A stretch of 64,000 nucleotides of DNA from contig JAXLTX010000002.1 in NCBI GenBank assembly GCA_046329775.1, positions 530,231-594,230 on the forward strand, in the 5' to 3' direction. The DNA is from Chitinophagales bacterium (GTDB lineage Bacteria > Bacteroidota > Bacteroidia > Chitinophagales > JADIYW01). Both the position numbers and the translations under genes were made by a program. Positions 4,746 to 25,764 of this stretch are shown here, piece by piece. The notes beneath the pieces are model-generated. The model was not told where the DNA came from, made no database searches, and saw only the letters and a program-made list of their open reading frames with translations. The first letter of the stretch is position 1. Every line of letters starts with the position of its first letter.

Positions 4746-5228
4746 ATGACGACAAACACCTCGAAAAATAACGGACTAATAGTTGGAACAATCTTTACGG
4801 TTTGTTCATTCCTATTGACATTTACATTTGTTGTGCCGATTATTTCAGTATTACCTGGAGTGTTTTTTGAAACTATTTCAAAAGCCATTGTTTCAAATGA
4901 CCCATACAGTAATGTGGGTAATCTGACAATCCTTTTACTGACTGTTCTTCTTTTATTAGCAATTATCTTGACCATAGTTTATACAAGGAAACGTACACCG
5001 GCAAACGAAACTTTATCTAAAGGAAGATTGACACTAATAATGTTCGCTTTTTATTTTATCGTTCATCCATTAGGTTTTTATATTTATTGGGGACTAAATC
5101 TAAATTTTCGTAGTGACGGACAATTAATATTTGCGGCAGTAGACAGTTTTCCAATTTCAAGTTTTGCTTTTGTGCTATTGGGACTTTTAATTGACTGGAT
5201 AAGAAATACGGCTGCTAACACAGGCTAA
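4746..5228 (+). CDS. Hypothetical multi-pass membrane protein (AT-rich, islet-borne)
   Basis: 160 aa with about 4 hydrophobic helices. GC is lower than in the neighbours. The ORF is flanked by the inverted 10-mers GTTAGCAGCC (4731-4740) and GGCTGCTAAC (5210-5219). Confidence 0.5.
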   Translation: MTTNTSKNNGLIVGTIFTVCSFLLTFTFVVPIISVLPGVFFETISKAIVSNDPYSNVGNLTILLLTVLLLLAIILTIVYTRKRTPANETLSKGRLTLIMFAFYFIVHPLGFYIYWGLNLNFRSDGQLIFAAVDSFPISSFAFVLLGLLIDWIRNTAANTG

Positions 5229-15734: not shown

Positions 15735-15808
15735 GGCTGCGTAGTTCAATTGGATAGAATATCAGATTTCGGCTCTGAGGGTTGAGGGTTCGAATCCTTC
15801 CGCGGTCA
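15735..15808 (+). tRNA. tRNA-Arg (anticodon UCG)
   Basis: Hand-folded cloverleaf: 7-bp acceptor stem (two G-U pairs), D stem GTTC/GAAT, anticodon stem TCAGA/TCTGA with loop TT-TCG-GC, T arm GAGGG-TTCGAAT-CCTTC, discriminator A. No encoded CCA. Confidence 0.85.
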
Positions 15809-15822
15809 CTTTTATTTTCGGG

Positions 15823-15881: not shown

Positions 15882-15985
15882 TACAAGTACGATTCGGCAG
15901 AATGTTGGTCAGGAAGACCAATAACGGCGAGGGGTAGTTAAGTATCCGATTGAACATGTTCTTTGTTTGGCACAAGCACGCCACG
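15882..15985. repeat. 104-bp direct repeat, copy a (family-2 unit with hairpin TTGGTC...GACCAA and GGGTAGTT motif)
   Basis: By eye it is identical to 16462-16565. Confidence 0.85.
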
Positions 15986-16046
15986 CTCACCGCTTGGCTG
16001 CATGCTCGCGCCAGTGGGAGTAGTTTGGTTTCGGTTGGTGAGGACA

Positions 16047-16135
16047 CCCCGCCCTCGACAGGTGTTTTCACCTGTCGACTGCCATACCGTTTATCTTGCA
16101 AAGACCTATTCATCATAAGCAGCTATAAAATTTCC
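16047..16135. repeat. Solo left end of the RAYT element (H1 hairpin plus last ~50 nt of the transposase gene)
   Basis: CCCCGCCCT-CGACAGGTGTTTTCACCTGTCG-ACTGCCATACCGTTTATCTTGCAAAGACCTATTCATCATAAGCAGCTATAAAAT. A second tail-only copy lies at 16146-16195. Confidence 0.8.
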
Positions 16136-16203
16136 GTACAAATATGTCGACTGCCATACCGTTTATCTTGCAAAGACCTATTCATATAAGCAGCACGTTT
16201 TCT

Positions 16204-16373
16204 CGACAGGTGTTTTCACCTGTCGACTGCCATACCGTTTATCTTTCAGCACACACATACGCTTAAATTTATAAAATAAATTTCGTTTAAAGGAGATCAT
16301 TCTTTGCGGCTAGTAGTTGGCAGGTGACGCATGCGCGCTAAAGCTTGCAAGCTAAACACCTGCCACGGGCGGG
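16204..16373. repeat. MITE-like non-autonomous unit (H1 ... H2)
   Basis: H1 is at 16204-16225. H2 arms are at 16319-16326 and 16357-16364. The H2 loop carries GCATGCGCGC and the 12-bp perfect palindrome AGCTTGCAAGCT. The unit ends in ACGGGCGGG. Confidence 0.8.
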
Positions 16374-16456
16374 TATATCATGTTTAAAAATAACACTAAT
16401 TTTCGGATTTCATTTCGGTTCGTAGTTGACAGGTGACAACACCTGTCAAGGGCAGG
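16374..16456. repeat. Solo right end of the RAYT element (first codons of the transposase plus GTAG-H3 hairpin)
   Basis: TATATCATGTTTAAAAATAAC...TCGTAGTTGACAGGTGACAACACCTGTCAAGGGCAGG matches 19216-19305 of the intact element. Confidence 0.8.
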
Positions 16457-16461
16457 ATACG

Positions 16462-16565
16462 TACAAGTACGATTCGGCAGAATGTTGGTCAGGAAGACCA
16501 ATAACGGCGAGGGGTAGTTAAGTATCCGATTGAACATGTTCTTTGTTTGGCACAAGCACGCCACG
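16462..16565. repeat. 104-bp direct repeat, copy b
   Basis: Identical to 15882-15985. Here the next H1 element follows immediately at 16566. Confidence 0.85.
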
Positions 16566-16974
16566 CCCCCGCCCTCGACAGGTGTTTTCACCTGTCGACT
16601 GCCATACCGTTTATCTTTCAGCACACACATACGTTTAAATTTATAAAATAAATTTCGTTTAAAGGAGATCACTCTTTGCGGCTAGCAGTTGGCAGGTGAC
16701 GCATGCGCGCTAAAGCCCCGCCCTCGACAGGTGTTTTCACCTGTCGCGCCTCGACAGGTGTTTTCATTTTGTCGACTGCCATACCGTTTATATGCAAAAA
16801 ACCTCACGCTTATCTTTTAATATTTTATTATATACAGTTCAGCACACACATACGCTTAAATTTATAAAATAAATTTCGTTTAAAGGAGATCATTCTTTGC
16901 GGCAAGTAGTTGGCCGGTGACGCATGCGCGCTAAAGCTTGCAAGCTAAACACCTGCCAAGGGCGGGGGGGGGGG
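16566..16974. repeat. Nested MITE-like units (one interrupted inside the H2 loop by another H1 end), ending in a G11 tract
   Basis: H1 at 16576-16597. H2 is cut at ...GCGCGCTAAAG|CCCCGCCCTCGAC (about 16716). H1 at 16725-16746, with a degenerate H1 at 16752-16775. A variant H2 (GGCCGGTG) starts at 16913. G11 runs 16964-16974. Confidence 0.75.
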
Positions 16975-17475
16975 CACCTGTCGACTGCCATACCGTTTAT
17001 CTTGCAAAGACCTATTCATCATAAGTAGCTATAAAATCCCATACACTTTTATTCTGCAAAAAATGCTCAGCGCTTGAATATTTATATTCTTCAGGCACTT
17101 TACACAAGCCAGCCCTTACCGGATTGTTATGTATATAATCCATTTTTTGAGTAAATACCTTCTCACTGTATAAATCTACCGATAATGAATCAGTTTTCCA
17201 AATCATATATGTTCGATCATAGTGATTAACTTTACAGGTATCCAATAATACTAAGTCATGTTGTTTTAAGTAAAACATAATTTGTTGAGCAGTATATTTC
17301 AAAAAATCTCGCTGTACATCTTTTAGCAAGTGTGGTGATCTTATTCGCCAGATTAAATGTAAATGGTTACTCATAATTACAAATCCATATACATTAACTC
17401 TGTTAGCTTTTACAAGGAATCTTAAACTATCTATGATAATGTCTTTTACAGCATCGTCCTTCAAAAGATGATTCC
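16975..17475 (-). mobile_element. 5'-truncated copy of the RAYT element (lacks right end and first ~18 codons; left hairpin halved)
   Basis: It begins with the half hairpin CACCTGTCGACTGCC and ends at ...GATGATTCC|CCGCCCTCGAC, where another H1 end abuts. It is nearly identical to 18684-19170. Confidence 0.8.
17012..17475 (-). pseudogene. IS200-like Y1 (HUH) transposase, RAYT-type, N-terminally truncated
   Basis: It retains the HUH motif SNHLHLIW and the Tyr motif DYIHNNPVRAGL but lacks MIYEENHPQFFTATIYEW. It differs from the intact copy at only a few residues (KDIII vs KYIII; IATYDE vs IAAYDE). Confidence 0.8.
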
Positions 17476-17696
17476 CCGCCCTCGACAGGTGTTTTCACCT
17501 GTCGACTGCCATACCGTTTATCTTGCAAAGACCTATTCATCATAAGCAGCTATAAAATCCCATACACCCCGCCCTCGACAGGTGTTTTCACCTGTCGACT
17601 GCCATACCGTTTATCTTTCAGCACACACATACGCTTAAATTTATAAAATAAATTTCGTTTAAAGGAGATCATTCTTTGCGGCTAGTAGTGGCAGGT
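17476..17696. repeat. Solo left end (17476-17566) followed by a MITE-like unit truncated in the H2 5' arm (17567-17696)
   Basis: H1 at 17483-17504 and 17576-17597. H2 stops at GTAGTGGCAGGT|TCTTTG. Confidence 0.8.
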
Positions 17697-17854
17697 TCTT
17701 TGTTTGGCACAAGCATGCCACGTTTGATTAATGGATGCATGCTTGCAGCAATAGGGAACTTAATGGTTGCGGTCAGAGACCGGCAGATTTAGTACACACG
17801 AGTGTACCTGCGGAACACTCGCGCGAGATGGGTAGTTGGGGAACACTATCTACA
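17697..17854. repeat. Family-2 structured repeat (three hairpins)
   Basis: CAAGCATGC pairs with GCATGCTTG. GCGGTC-AGA-GACCGG forms a second hairpin. CGAGTGT-ACCTGCGGA-ACACTCG forms a third. The unit ends with GGGTAGTTGGGG. Confidence 0.7.
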
Positions 17855-18274
17855 TTACTGCTCGGCTGATTTTATAGCTCTTTTAATTTCATCTTTTATC
17901 AAAAAGTCAAATTTCACAGGACAACTGTCATTTGCAGTAACCTCACACTCACTTATAGGGAAAATGGCATAACCTGAAATTAGAACAGTTTTATGATTAT
18001 TAACTATGGCAAAAGTCCTTAGAGATAAAAACAAAAGCTGTAATGATATTCCAAATAAATATTTGAATATATTATTACGCTTGAGATGAAAAAGAAAAAA
18101 AATAGCTAAAAGTGATATTACAAATACAATCATGTAGTTATATCTGACTAGGGAAACATTGTATGTTCCACTCTGGCCTGACAGTAAAAATTTCAATAAA
18201 TCTTCATCAATGATGCTAAATGAAGCAACTATCAAAATTAAAAGGCTAAATAGAATGTTCTTTATTTTATTCAT
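17855..18274 (-). CDS. Hypothetical membrane protein
   Basis: 139 aa with about 4 hydrophobic segments, AT-rich. It starts 1 nt after the upstream gene remnant. Confidence 0.45.
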   Translation of the reverse strand: MNKIKNILFSLLILIVASFSIIDEDLLKFLLSGQSGTYNVSLVRYNYMIVFVISLLAIFFLFHLKRNNIFKYLFGISLQLLFLSLRTFAIVNNHKTVLISGYAIFPISECEVTANDSCPVKFDFLIKDEIKRAIKSAEQ

Positions 18275-18275
18275 T

Positions 18276-18640
18276 TCATTCAGTTGTAAAGGTTACTCCC
18301 GCTGGAATAGTATTATCTTTATAAAACACAGGTGATACCAGTTTTTTATCACCATCTTGAATTAAAGTTGAAGATGATCCGCCATCAAATCCGAAAACGT
18401 AATCATATCCTTGACCAGCTAGTTTATCCCTTATAACATCGAGAGTCATTCCACCTGTTTTCATCTCATCAGGAGACACTACCAACATCATAGAGTTATT
18501 CTTACTGTTCAGAGCAATTATAACTTTTCCAACTGTCTTTGAATTTTGTGCGCCATATCCCTCTGCTTCACAATATTCACCATACTCCTTATTTGAATAT
18601 TTCTGTCCATCAACAATTATTGGAATTCCTCATCCAAAAC
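18276..18640 (-). pseudogene. Phosphodiester glycosidase (DUF2233/NAGPA-like) C-terminal remnant
   Basis: ...MMLVVSPDEMKTGGMTLDVIRDKLAGQGYDYVFGFDGGSSSTLI... The reading frame opens only at 18640, a few nt from the left end of the RAYT element (18653). Confidence 0.55.
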
Positions 18641-18652
18641 CTACTGTTGAAC

Positions 18653-19305
18653 CCCCGCCCTCGACAGGTGTTTTCACCTGTCGACTGCCATACCGTTTAT
18701 CTTGCAAAGACCTATTCATCATAAGCAGCTATAAAATCCCATACACTTTTATTCTGCAAAAAATGTTCAGCGCTTGAATATTTATATTCTTCAGGCACTT
18801 TACACAAGCCGGCCCTTACCGGATTGTTATGTATATAATCCATTTTTTGAGTAAATACTTTCTCGCTGTATAAATCTACCGATAATGAATCAGTTTTCCA
18901 AATCATATATGTTCGATCATAGTGATTAACTTTACAGGTATCCAATAATACTAAGTCATGTTGTTTTAAGTAAAACATAATTTGTTGAGCAGTATATTTC
19001 AAAAAATCTCGTTGTACATCTTTTAGCAAGTGTGGTGATCTTATTCGCCAGATTAAATGTAAATGGTTACTCATAATTACAAATCCATATACATTAACTC
19101 TGTTAGCTTTTACAAGGAATCTTAAACTATCTATGATAATGTATTTTACCGCATCATCCTTCAAAAGATGATTCCATTCATAAATGGTGGCGGTGAAAAA
19201 TTGCGGATGATTTTCTTCATATATCATGTTTAAAAATAACACTAATTTTCGGGTTTCATTTCGGTTCGTAGTTGACAGGTGACAACACCTGTCAAGGGCG
19301 GGGGG
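18653..19305 (-). mobile_element. Intact RAYT element: Y1 transposase flanked by inverted hairpin-containing ends
   Basis: Left end is CCCCGCCCTCGACAGGTGTTTTCACCTGTCGAC (18653-). Right end is GTAGTTGACAGGTGACAACACCTGTCAAGGGCGGGGGG (-19305). The reverse complement of the right end matches the left end at about 29 of 33 positions. Confidence 0.85.
18712..19227 (-). CDS. IS200-like Y1 (HUH) transposase, REP-associated tyrosine transposase (RAYT) type
   Basis: HUH motif VIMSNHLHLIW. Catalytic-Tyr helix KMDYIHNNPVRAGL. About 171 aa from ATG 19227; the ORF track starts at GTG 19242. Confidence 0.85.
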   Translation of the reverse strand: MIYEENHPQFFTATIYEWNHLLKDDAVKYIIIDSLRFLVKANRVNVYGFVIMSNHLHLIWRIRSPHLLKDVQRDFLKYTAQQIMFYLKQHDLVLLDTCKVNHYDRTYMIWKTDSLSVDLYSEKVFTQKMDYIHNNPVRAGLCKVPEEYKYSSAEHFLQNKSVWDFIAAYDE

Positions 19306-19365
19306 ATTTTGTAGACTCAGGTCGTCCTGCGGAAGACCTGCGCCAGAGTGGTGGAGTAGACAGTT
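19306..19365. repeat. Family-2 hairpin (CAGGTC-GTCCTGCGGAA-GACCTG)
   Basis: Same loop core CCTGCGGA as 17803-17826 but with a different, self-complementary stem. Confidence 0.6.
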
Positions 19366-19554
19366 TTACCTAAATAACTCAGCGATTGCCTTAATTAAAA
19401 AATAAAATCCACCTATAAAACAACTCATTATAACAGTAAAAGCTCTCCATTTATTACCAGCTGGATCATCGTCAGATTGATACTTATATTGAAAAAAGAA
19501 ACTAGCAAATCCAACTATTAATAATAAAACCCCATTTGTAATATCTGATTTCAT
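19366..19554 (-). CDS. Hypothetical small membrane protein (2 TM)
   Basis: 62 aa with two hydrophobic helices. It lies 8 nt downstream of a gene remnant. Confidence 0.4.
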   Translation of the reverse strand: MKSDITNGVLLLIVGFASFFFQYKYQSDDDPAGNKWRAFTVIMSCFIGGFYFLIKAIAELFR

Positions 19555-19686
19555 TGATTCAATTATTTATGTTCTTTATTTGTTTGAATATCTAAGGTTC
19601 TTTCTTCCGGTACTTCTAAAGTTTTATCTAGCAAGTAATCTTTACTTCTTTTTTGTGTTTCGTCTAAAATACCAGTTCCCAATTTA

Positions 19687-19951
19687 TCCCCGCCCTCGAC
19701 AGGTGTTTTCACCTGTCGACTGCCATACCGTTTATCTTGCAATATACATATACGCTTAAATTTATAAAATAAATTTCGTTTAAAGGAGATCATTCTTTGC
19801 GGCTAGTAGTTGGCAGGTGACGCATGCGCGCTAAAGCTTGCAAGCTAAACACCTGCCACGGGCGGGTATATCATGTTTAAAAATAACACTAATTTTCGGA
19901 TTTCATTTCGGTTCGTAGTTGACAGGTGACAACACCTGTCAAGGGCAGGGG
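19687..19951. repeat. Composite: MITE-like unit (subtype TTGCAATATACATATACGC) plus solo right end
   Basis: H1 at 19697-19718. H2 arms at 19812-19819 and 19850-19857. H3 at 19921-19940. From the H2 region onward it is identical to 16280-16456. Confidence 0.8.
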
Positions 19952-19956
19952 ATTTA

Positions 19957-20643
19957 GCCTTTAAACATCCTTCGTATGGGTTCAGAAAGCTGTTTGCCTA
20001 TATCCGCAGAGCAGGCAAAGGCTGGAATCATAAGCGGGTATATCGGATATATAAGCTGTTAAAGCTGAACAGAAAACGAAGAGGTAAAAGACGGCTGCCG
20101 GCAAGGGTAAAACAACCGCTGACACAACAGAGCCATATCAATCAAAGCTGGAGCATGGACTTTATGAGCGACAGTATGGTGGGCAATCGAAAGTTCAGAA
20201 CATTTAATGTGATGGATGACGGCTCCAGAGAAGTACTGGCTATAGAAGTAGATACCTCCCTTTCAGCAAAAAGAATTATAAGGACATTGCAACAAATTAT
20301 CAGCCACAGAGGAAAACCACAAATGATAAGAACAGACAACGGACCGGAATTCACCTCCAAGGACTTTGAGCTATGGTGTACAGACAATGAAATCAAACTT
20401 CAATATATTCAACCCGGAAGGCCCATGCAGAATGGTTATATAGAACGATTTAACCGGCTGTATCGGGAAGCGGTATTGGATGCTTACTTGTTCTTTGATC
20501 TGTCTGAAGTAAGAACACTCACCGATGAATGGATAGAGGAATACAATCACAGACGACCACACGAATCTTTACAAAACCAAACGCCCAATGAATGGAAAAT
20601 TAATTTATTAAATCAACAAAATACTCTAATTTGCACTGTCTGA
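19957..20643 (+). pseudogene. IS3-family transposase OrfB (DDE/rve integrase core), 5'-truncated
   Basis: The frame is open from 19957 (DLAFKHPSYGFRKLFAYIRRAGKGWNHKRVYRIYKLL...) through the rve core (...IRTDNGPEFTS...YIQPGRPMQNGYIERFN...YNHRRPHESL). There is no OrfA or left IR. It starts directly at the repeat end (19951). Confidence 0.8.
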
Positions 20644-20972
20644 AAAAAGGGGTACTTACACGCTAATTCATTCCTGTCAATATAAATATTTACTTCTACT
20701 GATTTTTCCATTACTTCTAAACTACCTGCCCCTGTCGCTACTACCTGATTTAAATCTATTGAAGCTTGCTCAAAATTTCTTAGCTCAAAGTAGGACAAAC
20801 CTCTTAAACCCAATAATTCTTTATTCTTTTTTTTGTCTAAACCCTTATTTGCTATCTCTATAACTTTACTGTAGTCTTTATTATTATATGCTACTTGAGC
20901 TTCTCTTACGTAATCCTTTGCACAAGAATTCATACATATCAAACAATAAAATCCGATTAGATAATTTTTCAT
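20613..20972 (-). CDS. TPR-like lipoprotein, probably 3'-disrupted by the IS3 remnant
   Basis: Lipoprotein signal MKNYLIGFYCLICMNSC and a TPR-like repeat. The last ~15 codons overlap the IS3 right end (to about 20660), so the native C-terminus is probably lost. Confidence 0.5.
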   Translation of the reverse strand: MKNYLIGFYCLICMNSCAKDYVREAQVAYNNKDYSKVIEIANKGLDKKKNKELLGLRGLSYFELRNFEQASIDLNQVVATGAGSLEVMEKSVEVNIYIDRNELACKYPFFQTVQIRVFC

Positions 20973-21093
20973 AAATACTATTTTTTTTGATAATTTGTTT
21001 TTGCACCTACGCCTACGCCTACTTTAAGTGGGCTATTTTTCCCGCCAACACCTTTATCTATTCCTACATTAACACCACTTCTTTCCCAACTAC

Positions 21094-21278
21094 TCGACTG
21101 CCATACCGTTTATCTTGCAATATACATATACGCTTAAATTTATAAAATAAATTTCGTTTAAAGGAGATCATTCTTTGCGGCTAGTAGTTGGCAGGTGACG
21201 CATGCGCGCTAAAGCTTGCAAGCTAAACACCTGCCACGGGCGGGTAGTTGACAGGTGACAACACCTGTCAAGGGCGGG
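21094..21278. repeat. Composite: hairpin-less left tail plus MITE-like body (H2) plus H3
   Basis: CGACTGCCATACCGTTTATCTTGCAATATACATATACGC... H2 arms at 21190-21197 and 21228-21235. H3 at 21250-21269. The ~50-nt transposase-start stub seen in the other composites is missing (GGGCGGGTA|GTTGAC). Confidence 0.8.
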
Positions 21279-22218: not shown

Positions 22219-25200
22219 ATGAGACTGAGAAGTTTGGACATTAAGGGATTTAAGAGTTTTGCCGATAAAACGCAGATCAATTTTGATAACAACATTACCG
22301 GCATCGTAGGACCGAACGGCTGCGGTAAATCCAATGTGGTGGATGCGATCCGCTGGGTATTGGGGGAGCAAAAAACCAAGGCACTTCGTCTGGAAAAGAT
22401 GGACAACATCATCTTTAACGGTACCAAAGATAAATCTGCCGCCAACGTAGCGGAAGTTTCCATTACGCTGGATAACACCAGAAACCTCCTTCCTACCGAA
22501 TTTTCCAGTGTTACCATTACCAGAACAGTGGAACGCGACGGCGACAGTGACTACAAACTGAACGGTGTCTCCTGCCGTTTAAAAGATATCCGCGACCTGT
22601 TCATGGATACCGGTATCTCCACCGATACCTATGCCATCATCGAGCTGAAGATGATTGACCAGATCCTGAACAACGTAGACAATGCGCGCCGTACCCTGAT
22701 TGAACAGGCGGCCGGCATCTCCAAATACAAGACCAGAAAGAAGGAAACGCTGGCAAAACTACAGGCAACGGAAGGCGATTTGAACCGCGTGGAAGACTTG
22801 CTGTTTGAAATCGACAAGAACCTGAAATCACTGGAATCACAGGCAAAGAAAGCGCGCCAGTACAAAAACTACAAGGAGGAATACAAGGTCATTTCCATCG
22901 ACCTTTCAAAATACGAGCTGCACGACATCAACGAGAGTTTCACACTTTCCAACAGGGAGATTGAAGAATACGAAGACAAACGCCTGGAAGCCAACACTCA
23001 GATTGAAGTGATGGAAGCCAATCTCGAAAAGGAGAAACTGGCAGTTTTGGATAAGGAAAGAACATTGTCTGACCAGCAAAAGCAACTCAATGCCTTCTTA
23101 TCACAATTGCAGGAAAAGGAAAGCCAGAAAAAGATAGACCAGCAGAAATCCACCTTCCTGAAAAACCAGATCGTACAGCTGAACCAGCAGATCACACAGG
23201 CAAAAGCCATCATTGAAACGCTGAGCAGAGAGATAGAGCAACTGACACACTACAACGAGGAAGACGAAAACAAACTGGAAGTGATCCGTGTGGAATTTGA
23301 CGATGCGAAAGCCAAATTGGAAGAACAGCGAAATGCCAATCTGGAGTTCAGAAACAACCTGGACGAGGCACGCAACAGACACGCTTCCAGTGTTAACAAG
23401 ATAACGGAAACCGAAAAACTGATTGCCGTCAAAGAATCACAGTATGAAGCCCTGCAACGCAGTGCACAGCAGTCGATGTTTGAAAATGAGGAGCGCATCA
23501 AAACGCTGGAAGGTTTGCGCAATGACATCGCACATACCGAAGAAAAAATAGAAAAGCAGAAACTGCTGGTGGATGACCTTCGCAGAAAGGAAGAGGAGAA
23601 CATGGAGAAAATCCAGCTGCTCGAAGAAAAGACCGAACAGCTCCGTCAGGATTTAACCAACAAAAACAGGACCTTAGACGCAAAAAACAACGAATTCAAG
23701 CTCACCAAAAACATGATAGACAATCTGGAAGGTTTTCCGGAATCCATCAAGTTTTTAAAGAAAAATGTCAACTGGCTGAAAGACACACCTTTACTTTCTG
23801 ATATTATTTACTCAGAAGAAAAATACCGTGTAGCCATTGAAAGCGTACTCCAGCCCTACCTCAACAACTTTGTGGTGGATACGGAAAACGAAGCCATCAA
23901 CGCGATTGATGTTTTATCTCAAAGTTCCGTCGGTAAAGCCAGCTTTTTGATTTTAGATTATTTTAAAAAGACTACCGCTAACGGTGATCAGTCGACGCTG
24001 GACAATACCAAAAAAGCGATTGATGTGGTTCAGATTGATGAAAAGTTTAAACCGCTCTTATCTTATCTGTTAAACGGCATTTATATAGCAGATGAAGGCA
24101 CGGATGTAAACAACATCTTTGATAAAATAGAAAACAAGAAAGACATTTACATCATTTCCAATTCCGGCCATTTGCTGAAATCCGACAAACAGATTTCCGG
24201 CGGTGCGGTTGGTTTATTTGAAGGAAAACGTCTAGGCCGTTTAAAGAATCTCGAAATTCTGGAAAAGGAAATCAAGGAACTGGAAACCGAAGTGATGCAC
24301 CTGAAGAAAGTGACACAGGACAATTACAACGAACTCCAGCACCTGAAAGTGAATTCATATCGCAACGTGATAGACCGCGAGTCGCATCAGTTGCAGCAGA
24401 TAGAGAAAGAACTGGTGGCAAAAAGATCCAAGATAGAAAGTGAGGAGAATTCGATTGGCAAGATCACTTCACAGGCGCAGGCATTGCACGAACAGATTGA
24501 GCGCATGCTGGAAGAGATTGAACCGCTCCGAACCATATTGAGCGAACATATCGCCACCTCCAACGAACACAAGAATGTGCTGGATAATCTGGAAATAGAT
24601 TTCAGAAAAGCAAATGAGCTGTACAACCAGTTTTCACAGGCGTTCAACCAGACGAATATTTTATTCATTCAGCAGGAAAACAAACTGAAATCCAACCAGC
24701 AGACCTTGACCTACAAGCAACACCAGCTGGAAGAGAATCAGAACCGTTTAAAAAATGCGACCAATGATATTGAGAACTCTCAGCTGGAGATTGACATTCT
24801 GACGGAATCCATCGAAAAACTGGAAACGGAACTGATAGAATCGTACAAGGAAAAAGAAGCGCAGATGCAGTCGCTCTCCACACAGGAAACCGATTACTAC
24901 AAGGTAAAGGACGGCATCAACGCGATTGAAGATGCCATTCGTGAGAAAAACAAATCCAAGCAACTCATAGAGCAAACCATCATGAGCAAGAAGGAATTGC
25001 TAAGCGAACTGAAACTGAAATTGAATGTTTTAAAAGAACGCTTATCCATTGAATTCCACATCGATGCGGAAGAATTTACGGCGAACCTTGAACTGCCGGA
25101 AACGCCGAAAGAAGACCTGGCAGACCGACTGGATAAGGTGAAACGCCGTATCGAAAACTTTGGTGAGGTGAACCCGATGGCGGAAGAAGCCTATAACGAA

Positions 25201-25764
25201 ATGAAGGAGCGTTTCGACTTCATCACCTTGCAGAAGAAGGATTTGATGGACTCCAAGGATAACCTGATGCAAACCATGCTGGAAATCGAGAACACGGCGA
25301 AAGGTCAGTTTTTAGAAACCTTCCACGCAGTACGCGAAAATTTCATCAGCGTATTCCGCAGCATGTTTACCCAAGATGACAATTGCGACCTGGTGCTGAT
25401 CAATCCGGATGATCCGCTGGAATCTGAAATCGATATCATTGCAAAACCAAAAGGAAAACGTCCGCAAGGTATTAACCAATTATCCGGTGGAGAAAAAACA
25501 CTGACGGCTTTGTCCTTGCTGTTTGGATTGTACTTATACAAACCGGCTCCGTTCTGTATCCTCGATGAGGTGGACGCTCCGCTGGATGACGCCAATGTAC
25601 GCAAGTTCAACGAAGCCATCCGCAAGTTCTCGGAAAACTCGCAGTTCATTCTGGTGACACACAATAAATCCACCATGGCCTGCGTAGATTCCATCTATGG
25701 GGTTACCATGGTAAAACAAGGGATTTCACGAGTGGTACCGGTGGATTTCGGCAGCTTGAATTAA
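22219..25764 (+). CDS. smc: Chromosome segregation protein SMC
   Basis: Walker A GPNGCGKSN, long coiled coils with a central hinge, signature LSGGEKTLTALSLLF, Walker B FCILDEVDAPLD. Confidence 0.95.
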   Translation: MRLRSLDIKGFKSFADKTQINFDNNITGIVGPNGCGKSNVVDAIRWVLGEQKTKALRLEKMDNIIFNGTKDKSAANVAEVSITLDNTRNLLPTEFSSVTITRTVERDGDSDYKLNGVSCRLKDIRDLFMDTGISTDTYAIIELKMIDQILNNVDNARRTLIEQAAGISKYKTRKKETLAKLQATEGDLNRVEDLLFEIDKNLKSLESQAKKARQYKNYKEEYKVISIDLSKYELHDINESFTLSNREIEEYEDKRLEANTQIEVMEANLEKEKLAVLDKERTLSDQQKQLNAFLSQLQEKESQKKIDQQKSTFLKNQIVQLNQQITQAKAIIETLSREIEQLTHYNEEDENKLEVIRVEFDDAKAKLEEQRNANLEFRNNLDEARNRHASSVNKITETEKLIAVKESQYEALQRSAQQSMFENEERIKTLEGLRNDIAHTEEKIEKQKLLVDDLRRKEEENMEKIQLLEEKTEQLRQDLTNKNRTLDAKNNEFKLTKNMIDNLEGFPESIKFLKKNVNWLKDTPLLSDIIYSEEKYRVAIESVLQPYLNNFVVDTENEAINAIDVLSQSSVGKASFLILDYFKKTTANGDQSTLDNTKKAIDVVQIDEKFKPLLSYLLNGIYIADEGTDVNNIFDKIENKKDIYIISNSGHLLKSDKQISGGAVGLFEGKRLGRLKNLEILEKEIKELETEVMHLKKVTQDNYNELQHLKVNSYRNVIDRESHQLQQIEKELVAKRSKIESEENSIGKITSQAQALHEQIERMLEEIEPLRTILSEHIATSNEHKNVLDNLEIDFRKANELYNQFSQAFNQTNILFIQQENKLKSNQQTLTYKQHQLEENQNRLKNATNDIENSQLEIDILTESIEKLETELIESYKEKEAQMQSLSTQETDYYKVKDGINAIEDAIREKNKSKQLIEQTIMSKKELLSELKLKLNVLKERLSIEFHIDAEEFTANLELPETPKEDLADRLDKVKRRIENFGEVNPMAEEAYNEMKERFDFITLQKKDLMDSKDNLMQTMLEIENTAKGQFLETFHAVRENFISVFRSMFTQDDNCDLVLINPDDPLESEIDIIAKPKGKRPQGINQLSGGEKTLTALSLLFGLYLYKPAPFCILDEVDAPLDDANVRKFNEAIRKFSENSQFILVTHNKSTMACVDSIYGVTMVKQGISRVVPVDFGSLN

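Follow-up and report, generated by a model that had tools for sequence, protein, structure and literature searches.

A complete REPtron in a Chitinophagales bacterium: an intact RAYT gene between inverted REP hairpins, with near-identical copies in different flanks

REP-associated tyrosine transposases (RAYTs, or TnpA-REP) are the textbook example of a domesticated bacterial transposase. TnpA-REP binds repetitive extragenic palindromes (REPs) only when they are single-stranded and folded, and the E. coli enzyme requires a GTAG tetranucleotide at the 5′ foot of the hairpin (PMC3333891, PMC3479197); both the GTAG requirement and the recognition of single-stranded DNA (ssDNA) hairpins are experimentally established (PMC3333891, PMC3479197, PMC8266576). 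The enzyme cuts 5′ or 3′ of the REP via a 5′-phosphotyrosine and can rejoin the strands (PMC3333891, PMC3479197). Where a REP is a perfect palindrome, the bases of its loop and the final two of GTAG matter most, and the tetranucleotide can steer the choice of cleavage site (PMC8266576). RAYTs are typically single-copy and vertically inherited (PMC3333891, PMC5581495, PMC6006769), while classical REPs are mostly found as inverted dimers (PMC3733652). Here we describe a RAYT locus in a contig of a metagenome-assembled genome of a Chitinophagales bacterium (locus-tag prefix U0X41) of an activated-sludge lineage. The window analysed is 64,000 nt in length, and all coordinates are positions within it. 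The region from 18652/3 to 19305 is a complete REPtron of ~0.65 kb, i.e. an intact RAYT gene between two inverted cognate REP hairpins. The overall architecture is that of the canonical REPtron, and the element is thus of an already known type.

A preliminary description of this DNA, made from the sequence alone, had proposed an intact Y1 transposase open reading frame (ORF) flanked by inverted, hairpin-bearing, G/C-capped ends, and this was borne out, positions included (Table 1). The RAYT gene is the sole ORF between the arms and there is no second gene, in agreement with the proposed absence of TnpB or any other passenger. The protein matches the NCBIfam equivalog model NF047646 (REP_Tyr_transpos) over residues 8-156, scoring 83.4 bits where the cutoff is 80 (E = 1.4e-23). 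This was its only NCBIfam match, and none of the IS200-type NCBIfam models matched at E ≤0.01. The Pfam model PF01797 (Y1_Tnp), which had been put forward as the check on this protein, scored 16.5 bits against a cutoff of 23 and thus failed to confirm it, and a single-sequence phmmer search of the PDB gave nothing significant. These two results made profile and fold searches necessary, and the assignment as a RAYT is therefore based on the NF047646 score together with the structure, not on Pfam. The protein has more than 3000 homologues, most of them 171-176 aa in length, the closest coming from Chitinophagales and Cytophagales. Many are named RayT by JGI, and several carry the source label 'REP element-mobilizing transposase RayT' or 'REP-associated tyrosine transposase'. 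The closest genomes are Chitinophagales; among the GTDB representative genomes, which do not include the source genome, the best RAYT is 81% identical to the window protein. Comparison with the sister genes in two related loci (L004 and L005; loci and contigs used for comparison are numbered L001 to L082) gives a dN/dS of ~0.06, so that the protein is under purifying selection.

The AlphaFold2 model of the protein has a mean pLDDT of 93.1. Its best fold match in the PDB is 4ER8_A, the E. coli TnpA-REP with a REP hairpin (E = 3e-8, TM score 0.62-0.64), followed by the TnpA structures of ISDra2, IS200 and IS608; structure prediction, which had also been suggested as a check, therefore yields a TnpA-REP fold. 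In a profile alignment to the PDB sequences the segment NHLHLIW falls on EHMHCIW of the E. coli protein (i.e. the HUH segment) and DYIHNNPV falls on DYIYINPV. The corresponding motif residues are H55-L-H57 (HUH), W110, the catalytic Y131 within YIHNNP, N135 and S151-S152. In the 4ER8 chain H55 and H57 are equivalent to the HUH histidines, W110 to W94, Y131 to the catalytic Y115 and N135 to N119, with the roles of the aligned E. coli residues taken from PMC6006769. The HUH motif and the tyrosine are separated by 76 aa, and the C-terminal motif KYSS is present. An alignment of 45 RAYT homologues contains 25 invariant columns, including H55, H57, W60, W110, Y131, H133, N135, P136, S151 and S152. 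The earlier reading of NHLHLIW and the YIHNNP helix as RAYT features is thus upheld. The ORF is a RAYT-type Y1 HUH enzyme, and its catalytic geometry, judged by fold and alignment, is probably that of such enzymes.

The two ends of the unit have closely similar layouts. Reading along the plus strand, the left end comprises a cap CCCC(C)GCCC (18652/3-18660), the stem strand TCGACAGGTG (18661-18670), a TTTT loop (18671-18674), the second stem strand CACCTGTCGA (18675-18684) and an inner CTGC (18685-18688). The outer boundary is ambiguous by 1 base within the C-run (18652 or 18653). The right end begins with GTAG (19268-19271), followed by the stem strand TTGACAGGTG (19272-19281), an ACAA loop (19282-19285), the stem strand CACCTGTCAA (19286-19295) and the tail or cap GGGCGGGGGG (19296-19305). 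Both arms are therefore perfect 10-bp stems with a loop of 4 nt and a G/C-rich outer cap. Folding of the two arms as ssDNA, on either strand, gave ΔG values between -10.4 and -12.9 kcal/mol (z between -4.8 and -6.4), and none of 200 shuffles folded as well. The ends had been described as inverted copies at about 29 of 33 positions, each forming a hairpin of its own. They are indeed inverted copies, although 31 of 34 positions are identical when the left end is set against the reverse complement of the right, and both form stable folds, but with stems of 10 bp rather than 8, which places the tetranucleotide directly at the foot. The GTAG motif attributed to the ends is found on the right arm only. 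CTGC of the left arm reads GCAG on the minus strand, right at the hairpin foot, and GCAG is present in all left-arm copies; the differences between left and right arms are consistent throughout the copies.

Table 1. Features of the REPtron, its derivatives in the window and the flanks of its copies. Flanks are given in RAYT sense, with a slash at the boundary of the unit.
Feature	Position	Strand	Details
RAYT / TnpA-REP gene, MFN8260036.1	18712-19227	-	171 aa, ATG at 19227
Left end, 3′ arm in RAYT sense (H1)	18652-18688	.	cap, 10-bp stem, TTTT loop, CTGC
Right end, 5′ arm in RAYT sense (H3)	19268-19305	.	GTAG foot, 10-bp stem, ACAA loop, tail
Second RAYT copy, MFN8260033.1	16975-17475	-	150-aa ORF, 98.2% identical over 501 bp
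ORF-less 267-bp derivative	19685-19951	+	both ends as in the full unit
Second ORF-less composite (H1, H2, H3)	16202-16456	+	97-99% identical, left cap missing
H1-less copy of the H1-H2 module abutting a 35-nt H3 REP	21094-21278	+	H3 REP at 21244-21278
Two left-end fragments	16047-16194	+	REPtron nt 1-85 at 16047-16131; nt 27-77 at 16145-16194
Truncated H1-H2 modules with solo/duplicated H1 hairpins	16567-16966	+	modules 16567-16716 and 16846-16966; hairpins 16716-16746 and 16745-16812
Left-end fragment joined to an internal site of RAYT copy 2, then a truncated H1-H2 module	17474-17696	+	REPtron nt 1-94 at 17474-17567; module 17567-17696
5′ flanks of the unit			...acaaaat/ window; ...cacaaaaat/ L001/L002/L064; ...ataacat/ L003; ...gccggt/ L078/L079; ...ttggcaa/ L080-L082
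3′ flanks of the unit			/gttcaacag window, L082; /ttactttg L001; /gaatttag L078/L079; /cccgactgcc L080/L081

Counting the arm hairpins over the 64-kb window, the core GACAGGTG-N4-CACCTGTC occurs 12 times, where shuffles predict 0.00. The 12 copies are confined to 16057-21269 and share one orientation, and searching the remaining 58 kb of the window with a looser core pattern added none. GTAG is present on the right arm and in 7 of the 9 copies of H3 and of H2, a related large-loop hairpin. A stronger statement had been made, that GTAGTTG always precedes H2 and H3; this is true of 4/4 H3 but only 3/5 H2 copies, the deviant ones being GCAGTTGG at 16685 and GTAGTTGGCC at 16906, each one position away from GTAGTTGG. 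We also note that copies differ in the length of the G- or C-run at the outer cap, which ranges from 3 to 11 bases, with 11 G at 16958-16969. This variation could arise from replication slippage, from untemplated addition or from homopolymer sequencing error, and such errors may contribute to the run lengths given.

A matched pair of inverted hairpin arms brackets the gene around every reasonably close homologue in the GTDB genomes. The stems vary among these relatives (GACAGGTG, GGCAGGTG, TTGTTGGTG, GCTGTTG, GTTCGTG, GTTTTGTG and GGTCTGTG), but the changes are paired so that complementarity is kept, while the innermost GTG..CAC pairs are retained, as is a GG(G)C tail. In more distant relatives the stems are altered by compensatory substitutions that covary with the gene. 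This is the co-evolution of REP and RAYT seen in other RAYT groups (PMC8266576). The tetranucleotide is less constant. On the gene-proximal side of the 5′ arm it is GTAG in the window, L004, L005, L006 and the first copy in L071 (Ga0209582_1000012), whereas at the 3′ arm it is GTAG (L004 and L065/L071), GCAG (window and L006) or GGTG (L005). In Pontibacter (L009) GTAG and GCAG are both found, five bases out from the foot. A universal GTAG in this family is rejected, as it is missing from distant relatives and from some solo arms. Thus of the proposal that the hairpin and GTAG arrangement would be conserved in other copies, the layout of hairpin plus tetranucleotide holds around close relatives but GTAG itself varies; on the sequences compared, the hairpin arrangement is conserved and the GTAG tag conserved only locally. 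As a separate observation, L066 (Ga0209582_1000001) contains at 5100-5180 two head-to-tail solo arms (TTGACAGGTG-ATAA-CACCTGTCAA-GGGCGGA) in an intergenic location with AATAA instead of GTAG upstream, and head-to-tail tandem arms are also present in L008, L009 and L072.

The REPtron is not confined to one site. Three RAYT copies of at least 97% identity are found on the 610,111-bp source contig, over which these copies were counted: one intact, one truncated and one degenerate. The last of these, MFN8260083.1, lies outside the window on the same contig, and is C-terminally truncated and carries the substitution H57Y. The truncated copy (16975-17475) lacks the first ~17 codons, the 5′ untranslated region (UTR), the 5′ arm and one half of the hairpin in the 3′ arm, and for this reason is regarded as a pseudogene. 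In other public contigs the ~650-bp unit is present from cap to cap at 98-99.5% identity between different flanks, and its homology to the window ends at the C-run and G-run caps; this agrees with its earlier designation as a minimal complete unit of about 650 bp. Taking only units of at least 98% identity, the 5′ flanking DNA is of five kinds and the 3′ flanking DNA of four. Sister units sharing 98.3% identity, again with different flanks, are present on 525-kb and 285-kb contigs of a single metagenome. In a closely related strain (L078/L079) the 5′ flank corresponds to the window from 21279 onward and a full RAYT unit stands at that junction, whereas at 21278/21279 the window itself has only an ORF-less module and a minimal 35-nt H3 REP. 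At L072:1372-2343 a REPtron of the GACAGGTG family has lost part of its sequence and encloses a REPtron with TTGTTGG/CCAACAA hairpins, after which come tandem REPs arranged head to tail. No target-site duplication (TSD) was found in the flank pairs compared, as is expected for transposition by Y1 HUH enzymes (PMC3333891). One sister REPtron (L071:6150-7100) has a perfect 34-bp direct repeat, ACCACAGACCACTGACGATGATAAATATAACGTTC, on both sides that is not found in other copies; the same segment has three tandem 5′ ends, each with the first ~23 nt of the ORF.

The unit also has a form that lacks the ORF. The 267-bp derivative is composed of REPtron nt 1-55 (containing H1), a piece of 129 bp and REPtron nt 568-652, the last comprising the 5′ UTR, the first 8 nt of the ORF and H3. 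Its 129-bp interior aligns with the 5′ ends of the sister REPtrons in L004 and L005, their large-loop hairpin (H2, 19806-19866) included, so that the derivative combines parts of two related REPtrons and is a chimera without the ORF.

Both forms lie within a cluster of ~20 co-oriented pieces in 5.4 kb (16.0-21.3 kb). The cluster contains the intact unit, the truncated copy, two 267-bp composites, four further partial H1-H2 modules, five left-end fragments and a solo H3 REP. It falls between a tRNA-Arg(TCG) gene (15735-15809), which is immediately upstream, and smc (22219-25764), 1 kb downstream, and thus sits in a chromosomal intergenic hot spot beside a tRNA gene. Over 15-22 kb the only Rfam match was the tRNA, and the GC-rich repeats nearby matched no Rfam family. 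The genes interspersed among the pieces are fragmentary, i.e. a C-terminal piece of a NAGPA-like gene ending at the left arm, the remnant of an IS3-family integrase core, and small ORFs. We also observe that the IS3-family transposase remnant occupies 19953-20643, where a 162-aa ORF (20155-20643) with rve and rve_3 is 5′-truncated beside the H3 arm. A block of 105 bp that is no part of the element is duplicated with 100% identity (15882-15986 = 16462-16566); a left arm follows directly after the second copy, and lies ~60 bp beyond the first. Recent segmental duplication therefore contributes to the cluster. The cap is joined to a non-homologous internal site of the RAYT at 17474, 17567, L001:807 and L065:5510, and in the triple 5′ ends of L071. 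Such joins between tip and interior recur across lineages, and aberrant cleavage and strand transfer at the arms would be expected to leave them. Overall the region is a rearrangement hot spot and not a set of clean insertions.

Three further observations were made in and near the cluster. A second family of GC-rich repeats lies beside the REPtron pieces (15895-15945, ~15996-16030, 17780-17835, 19306-19362, L068:441-503 and L072:1086-1154), and in each of them a short hairpin, whose loop is CCTGCGGAA or CAGGAA, precedes GCGC[CG]AGA(G)TGG, with (G)GTAG coming after that; the family could represent the REP belonging to another RAYT, or else the terminus of a different small element. An ORF running through the 3′ arm (...QDKRYGSRQVKTPVEGG) is in frame with a downstream truncated gene in 3/3 cases (18630-18700, 19563-19793 and L001:911-1363), although the case at 18630 has an intervening stop codon, and this in-frame read-through may be due to chance. 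Upstream of the cluster a cytochrome P450 gene (13097-14206 and upstream) is split into a 369-aa ORF and a separate C-terminal ORF of 83 aa. The same split is present in 5/5 of the Logan contigs shown, out of 13 that have the identical 369-aa protein, and reflects either a genuine frameshift or pseudogene, or else an assembly feature common to them.

How might such a unit work? By analogy with the TnpA-REP proteins of E. coli, S. maltophilia and Marinomonas and with IS608 and ISDra2, a monomeric HUH/tyrosine enzyme would bind the arm only as an ssDNA hairpin, for example at a replication fork, and would read the hairpin together with G(T/C)AG at its 5′ foot. Attack by Y131 would then cut the strand, presumably at or just outside the G-rich tail, to generate a 5′-phosphotyrosine and a free 3′-OH, and the strand would be rejoined elsewhere. 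If the two arms were acted upon in a coordinated manner, as appears to be the case in this lineage, the unit would be moved or copied from cap to cap with no TSD, while one-ended aberrant joins and recombination between copies might generate the dense, co-oriented partial ends at 16.0-21.3 kb. GC skew (-0.054) shows the plus strand to be C-rich, so the RAYT-sense strand is the G-rich one, though this assignment of the strand is only suggestive. The uniform orientation of the pieces and the G-rich RAYT-sense strand would fit, weakly, a strand-specific process linked to replication. On the same analogy the binding of the arms, the position of cleavage and the strand specificity would follow TnpA-REP, and the copies would be the work of the RAYT rather than of host recombination.

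We consider it likely, with a probability of roughly 0.7, that this is a REPtron with a functional RAYT and cognate arms, of which the unit and its ORF-less form were recently copied in the manner of an insertion sequence (IS) and a miniature inverted-repeat transposable element (MITE). The occurrence of multiple copies with fixed boundaries is circumstantial evidence that suggests IS-like copying of the whole unit. A bolder proposal, that we have here an undomesticated RAYT in a 0.65-kb REPtron that still transposes autonomously from cap to cap and mobilises its own MITE, is possible but we would put it at somewhat less than an even chance. A housekeeping-like gene in single copy within an immobile REPtron, the trait of most RAYT groups, does not seem to fit this locus (three copies on the contig, five 5′ flanks); this trait is behavioural and is not a condition of RAYT homology.

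A number of points weigh against such copying. Published work holds that a REPtron does not transpose as a unit (PMC3333891, PMC6006769, PMC3733652). An empty site or simple insertion was looked for and not found, and no shared target sequence or motif was found among the flanks compared. The genes flanking the unit in the window and in L001 are truncated and non-contiguous, which puts the copies within rearranged DNA. In L082 the 5′ flank known from L080 is found together with the window's 3′ flank, just as recombination or mis-assembly would produce. The arm family is rare overall: the JGI metagenome collection yielded nine loci, and the remaining 58 kb of the window has none. Finally, distant relatives and some solo arms (L066) lack GTAG and the left arm in the window has GCAG, so that the role of the tetranucleotide is uncertain here.

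Several of these points are what would be expected were this an ordinary domesticated REPtron, immobile as a unit, in which the RAYT processes only REPs. The copies and their flanks would then have arisen by homologous recombination or gene conversion between arms (sharing 55-85 bp), segmental duplication, rearrangement between strains or assembly chimeras; metagenome contigs spanning a 650-bp repeat can indeed be chimeric, and L082 looks like a recombinant or a chimera. The duplicated 105-bp block demonstrates that segmental duplication is active, and the 21278 junction, which carries the full unit in one strain and an ORF-less form in the window, is what gene conversion or deletion between arms gives. 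Truncated flanking genes in place of clean insertions, the reported immobility of REPtrons (PMC3333891, PMC6006769) and the near-absence of relatives from plasmids (a plasmid search gave five distant matches) all point the same way. Yet five unrelated 5′ flanks end exactly at the C-run cap, and the joins of cap to internal site (17474, 17567, L001:807, L065:5510 and L071) are illegitimate events rather than homologous exchange. The single orientation of all the pieces and the nesting of a REPtron within one of a different hairpin family also argue against it. We think an immobile REPtron unlikely, but this explanation is kept alive because there is no clean pair of filled and empty sites. That the unit is instead a classical IS of the IS200 group of the IS200/IS605 family, and not a RAYT element, is very improbable: it is small, has a single tnpA-like gene and subterminal hairpins, is multi-copy with no TSD, and its protein fold also matches the TnpA of ISDra2 and IS608, but the Pfam Y1_Tnp score is 16.5 against 23, the only NCBIfam match is to the RAYT equivalog and TnpA-REP ranks first by fold, the two ends repeat one GTAG-footed REP-like hairpin in inverted orientation where those of IS200/IS605 elements are not inverted repeats (PMC3333891), and the protein has the C-terminal SS motif and long HUH-to-Tyr spacing (76 aa) of RAYTs (PMC6006769).

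If the copies stem from host recombination, then this is one more REPtron. If on the other hand the RAYT is undomesticated, the element would be a living intermediate between IS200-type IS and the domesticated single-copy REP/RAYT systems, and among the smallest autonomous transposons known. A mobile unit would also provide a tractable system from the Bacteroidota, with a protein of 171 aa and two arms of 35 nt, in which the handling of two inverted REPs by a Y1 enzyme, the position of the cut and the domestication of RAYTs from IS200-like ancestors could be addressed.

The closest comparison is with the REPtron of E. coli K-12 (4ER8). Both have a HUH/tyrosine enzyme of monomer type with the same fold and catalytic residues, in both, inverted REP hairpins that carry GTAG at the 5′ foot lie on either side of the gene, and the recognition of the hairpin as ssDNA would be expected to be alike (PMC3333891, PMC3479197). 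However, the proteins are only 18% identical. The hairpins here are perfect 10-bp stems with no bulge, and are nearer to the REPs termed 'group 3' in S. maltophilia and Marinomonas (PMC8266576). Each side carries a single hairpin in place of an array of bacterial interspersed mosaic elements, one arm has GCAG, and a G-rich tail or cap is present. In E. coli the REPtron exists as one immobile copy and its REPs number hundreds and are dispersed, whereas the unit described here is multi-copy with fixed boundaries and its arm family, over the window and the metagenome collection covered, is low-copy and clustered.

Within the classification of TnpA-Y1 proteins the protein fits subclass 2.6 of Quentin et al. 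(2018), which is RAYT group 5 of Bertels et al. (2017), an assignment made by motif signature and not from a tree. It shares the motifs NH[LIV]H and YIH[QN]NP with SS downstream, a length of ~171-179 aa and a host in the Bacteroidota (PMC6006769). The HUH-to-Tyr spacing of 76 aa compares with a median of 82, and flanking secondary structures and further copies in the genome are likewise features of the subclass (PMC6006769), whose signature also includes an insertion between αC and β4 and a host in the Bacteroidetes (PMC6006769). It differs in having WR in this copy where the subclass and the family consensus have WQ. Moreover, the flanks of subclass 2.6 genes are reported as 'atypical secondary structures' that lack GT[AG]G and are weakly paired (PMC6006769), while here they are strong canonical hairpins with GTAG on one arm.

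With IS200, IS608 and ISDra2 the unit has in common the minimal Y1 layout, distinct left and right ends, the absence of TSD and multi-copy behaviour, and 'peel and paste' chemistry on ssDNA is probable here by analogy. It is unlike them in that its ends are inverted copies of one hairpin, its RAYT-type protein falls below the Pfam Y1_Tnp cutoff and a conserved target tetranucleotide was not found in the flanks. A classical IS200/IS605 element is disfavoured by the Pfam score, the inverted ends and the lack of a fixed target.

The 267-bp ORF-less element resembles REPINs and IS-derived MITEs in sharing the inverted arms of the full unit and in being present at least twice. REPINs are, however, short REP doublets found in tens to hundreds of copies that are served by a single-copy RAYT, whereas the derivative is longer, chimeric and low-copy, seen only in the cluster and in L078/L079. 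A classical REPIN was therefore rejected, given its 267 bp, three hairpins and ~2 full copies, and the head-to-tail arrangement of solo arms. The TIRtrons, or TIRYTs, of Di Nocera et al. (2013) also have a RAYT-like gene between terminal inverted repeats (TIRs) of ~34 bp, some of which are self-complementary, and form repeat families of moderate size. Their TIRs are by definition unrelated to GTAG REPs, while each TIR here is a REP hairpin footed by GTAG or GCAG, and the unit is consequently not a TIRtron as defined.

The sequence and the modelled fold of the protein, its predicted catalytic residues and the flanking inverted REPs all place this locus within the RAYT family. Where it departs from the usual description of RAYTs is in its near-identical copies, its fixed ends within unrelated flanks, the IS/MITE-like pair formed by the unit and its ORF-less derivative, the near-absence of relatives from plasmids, and the low copy number of its arms over the window and the JGI metagenome scan.

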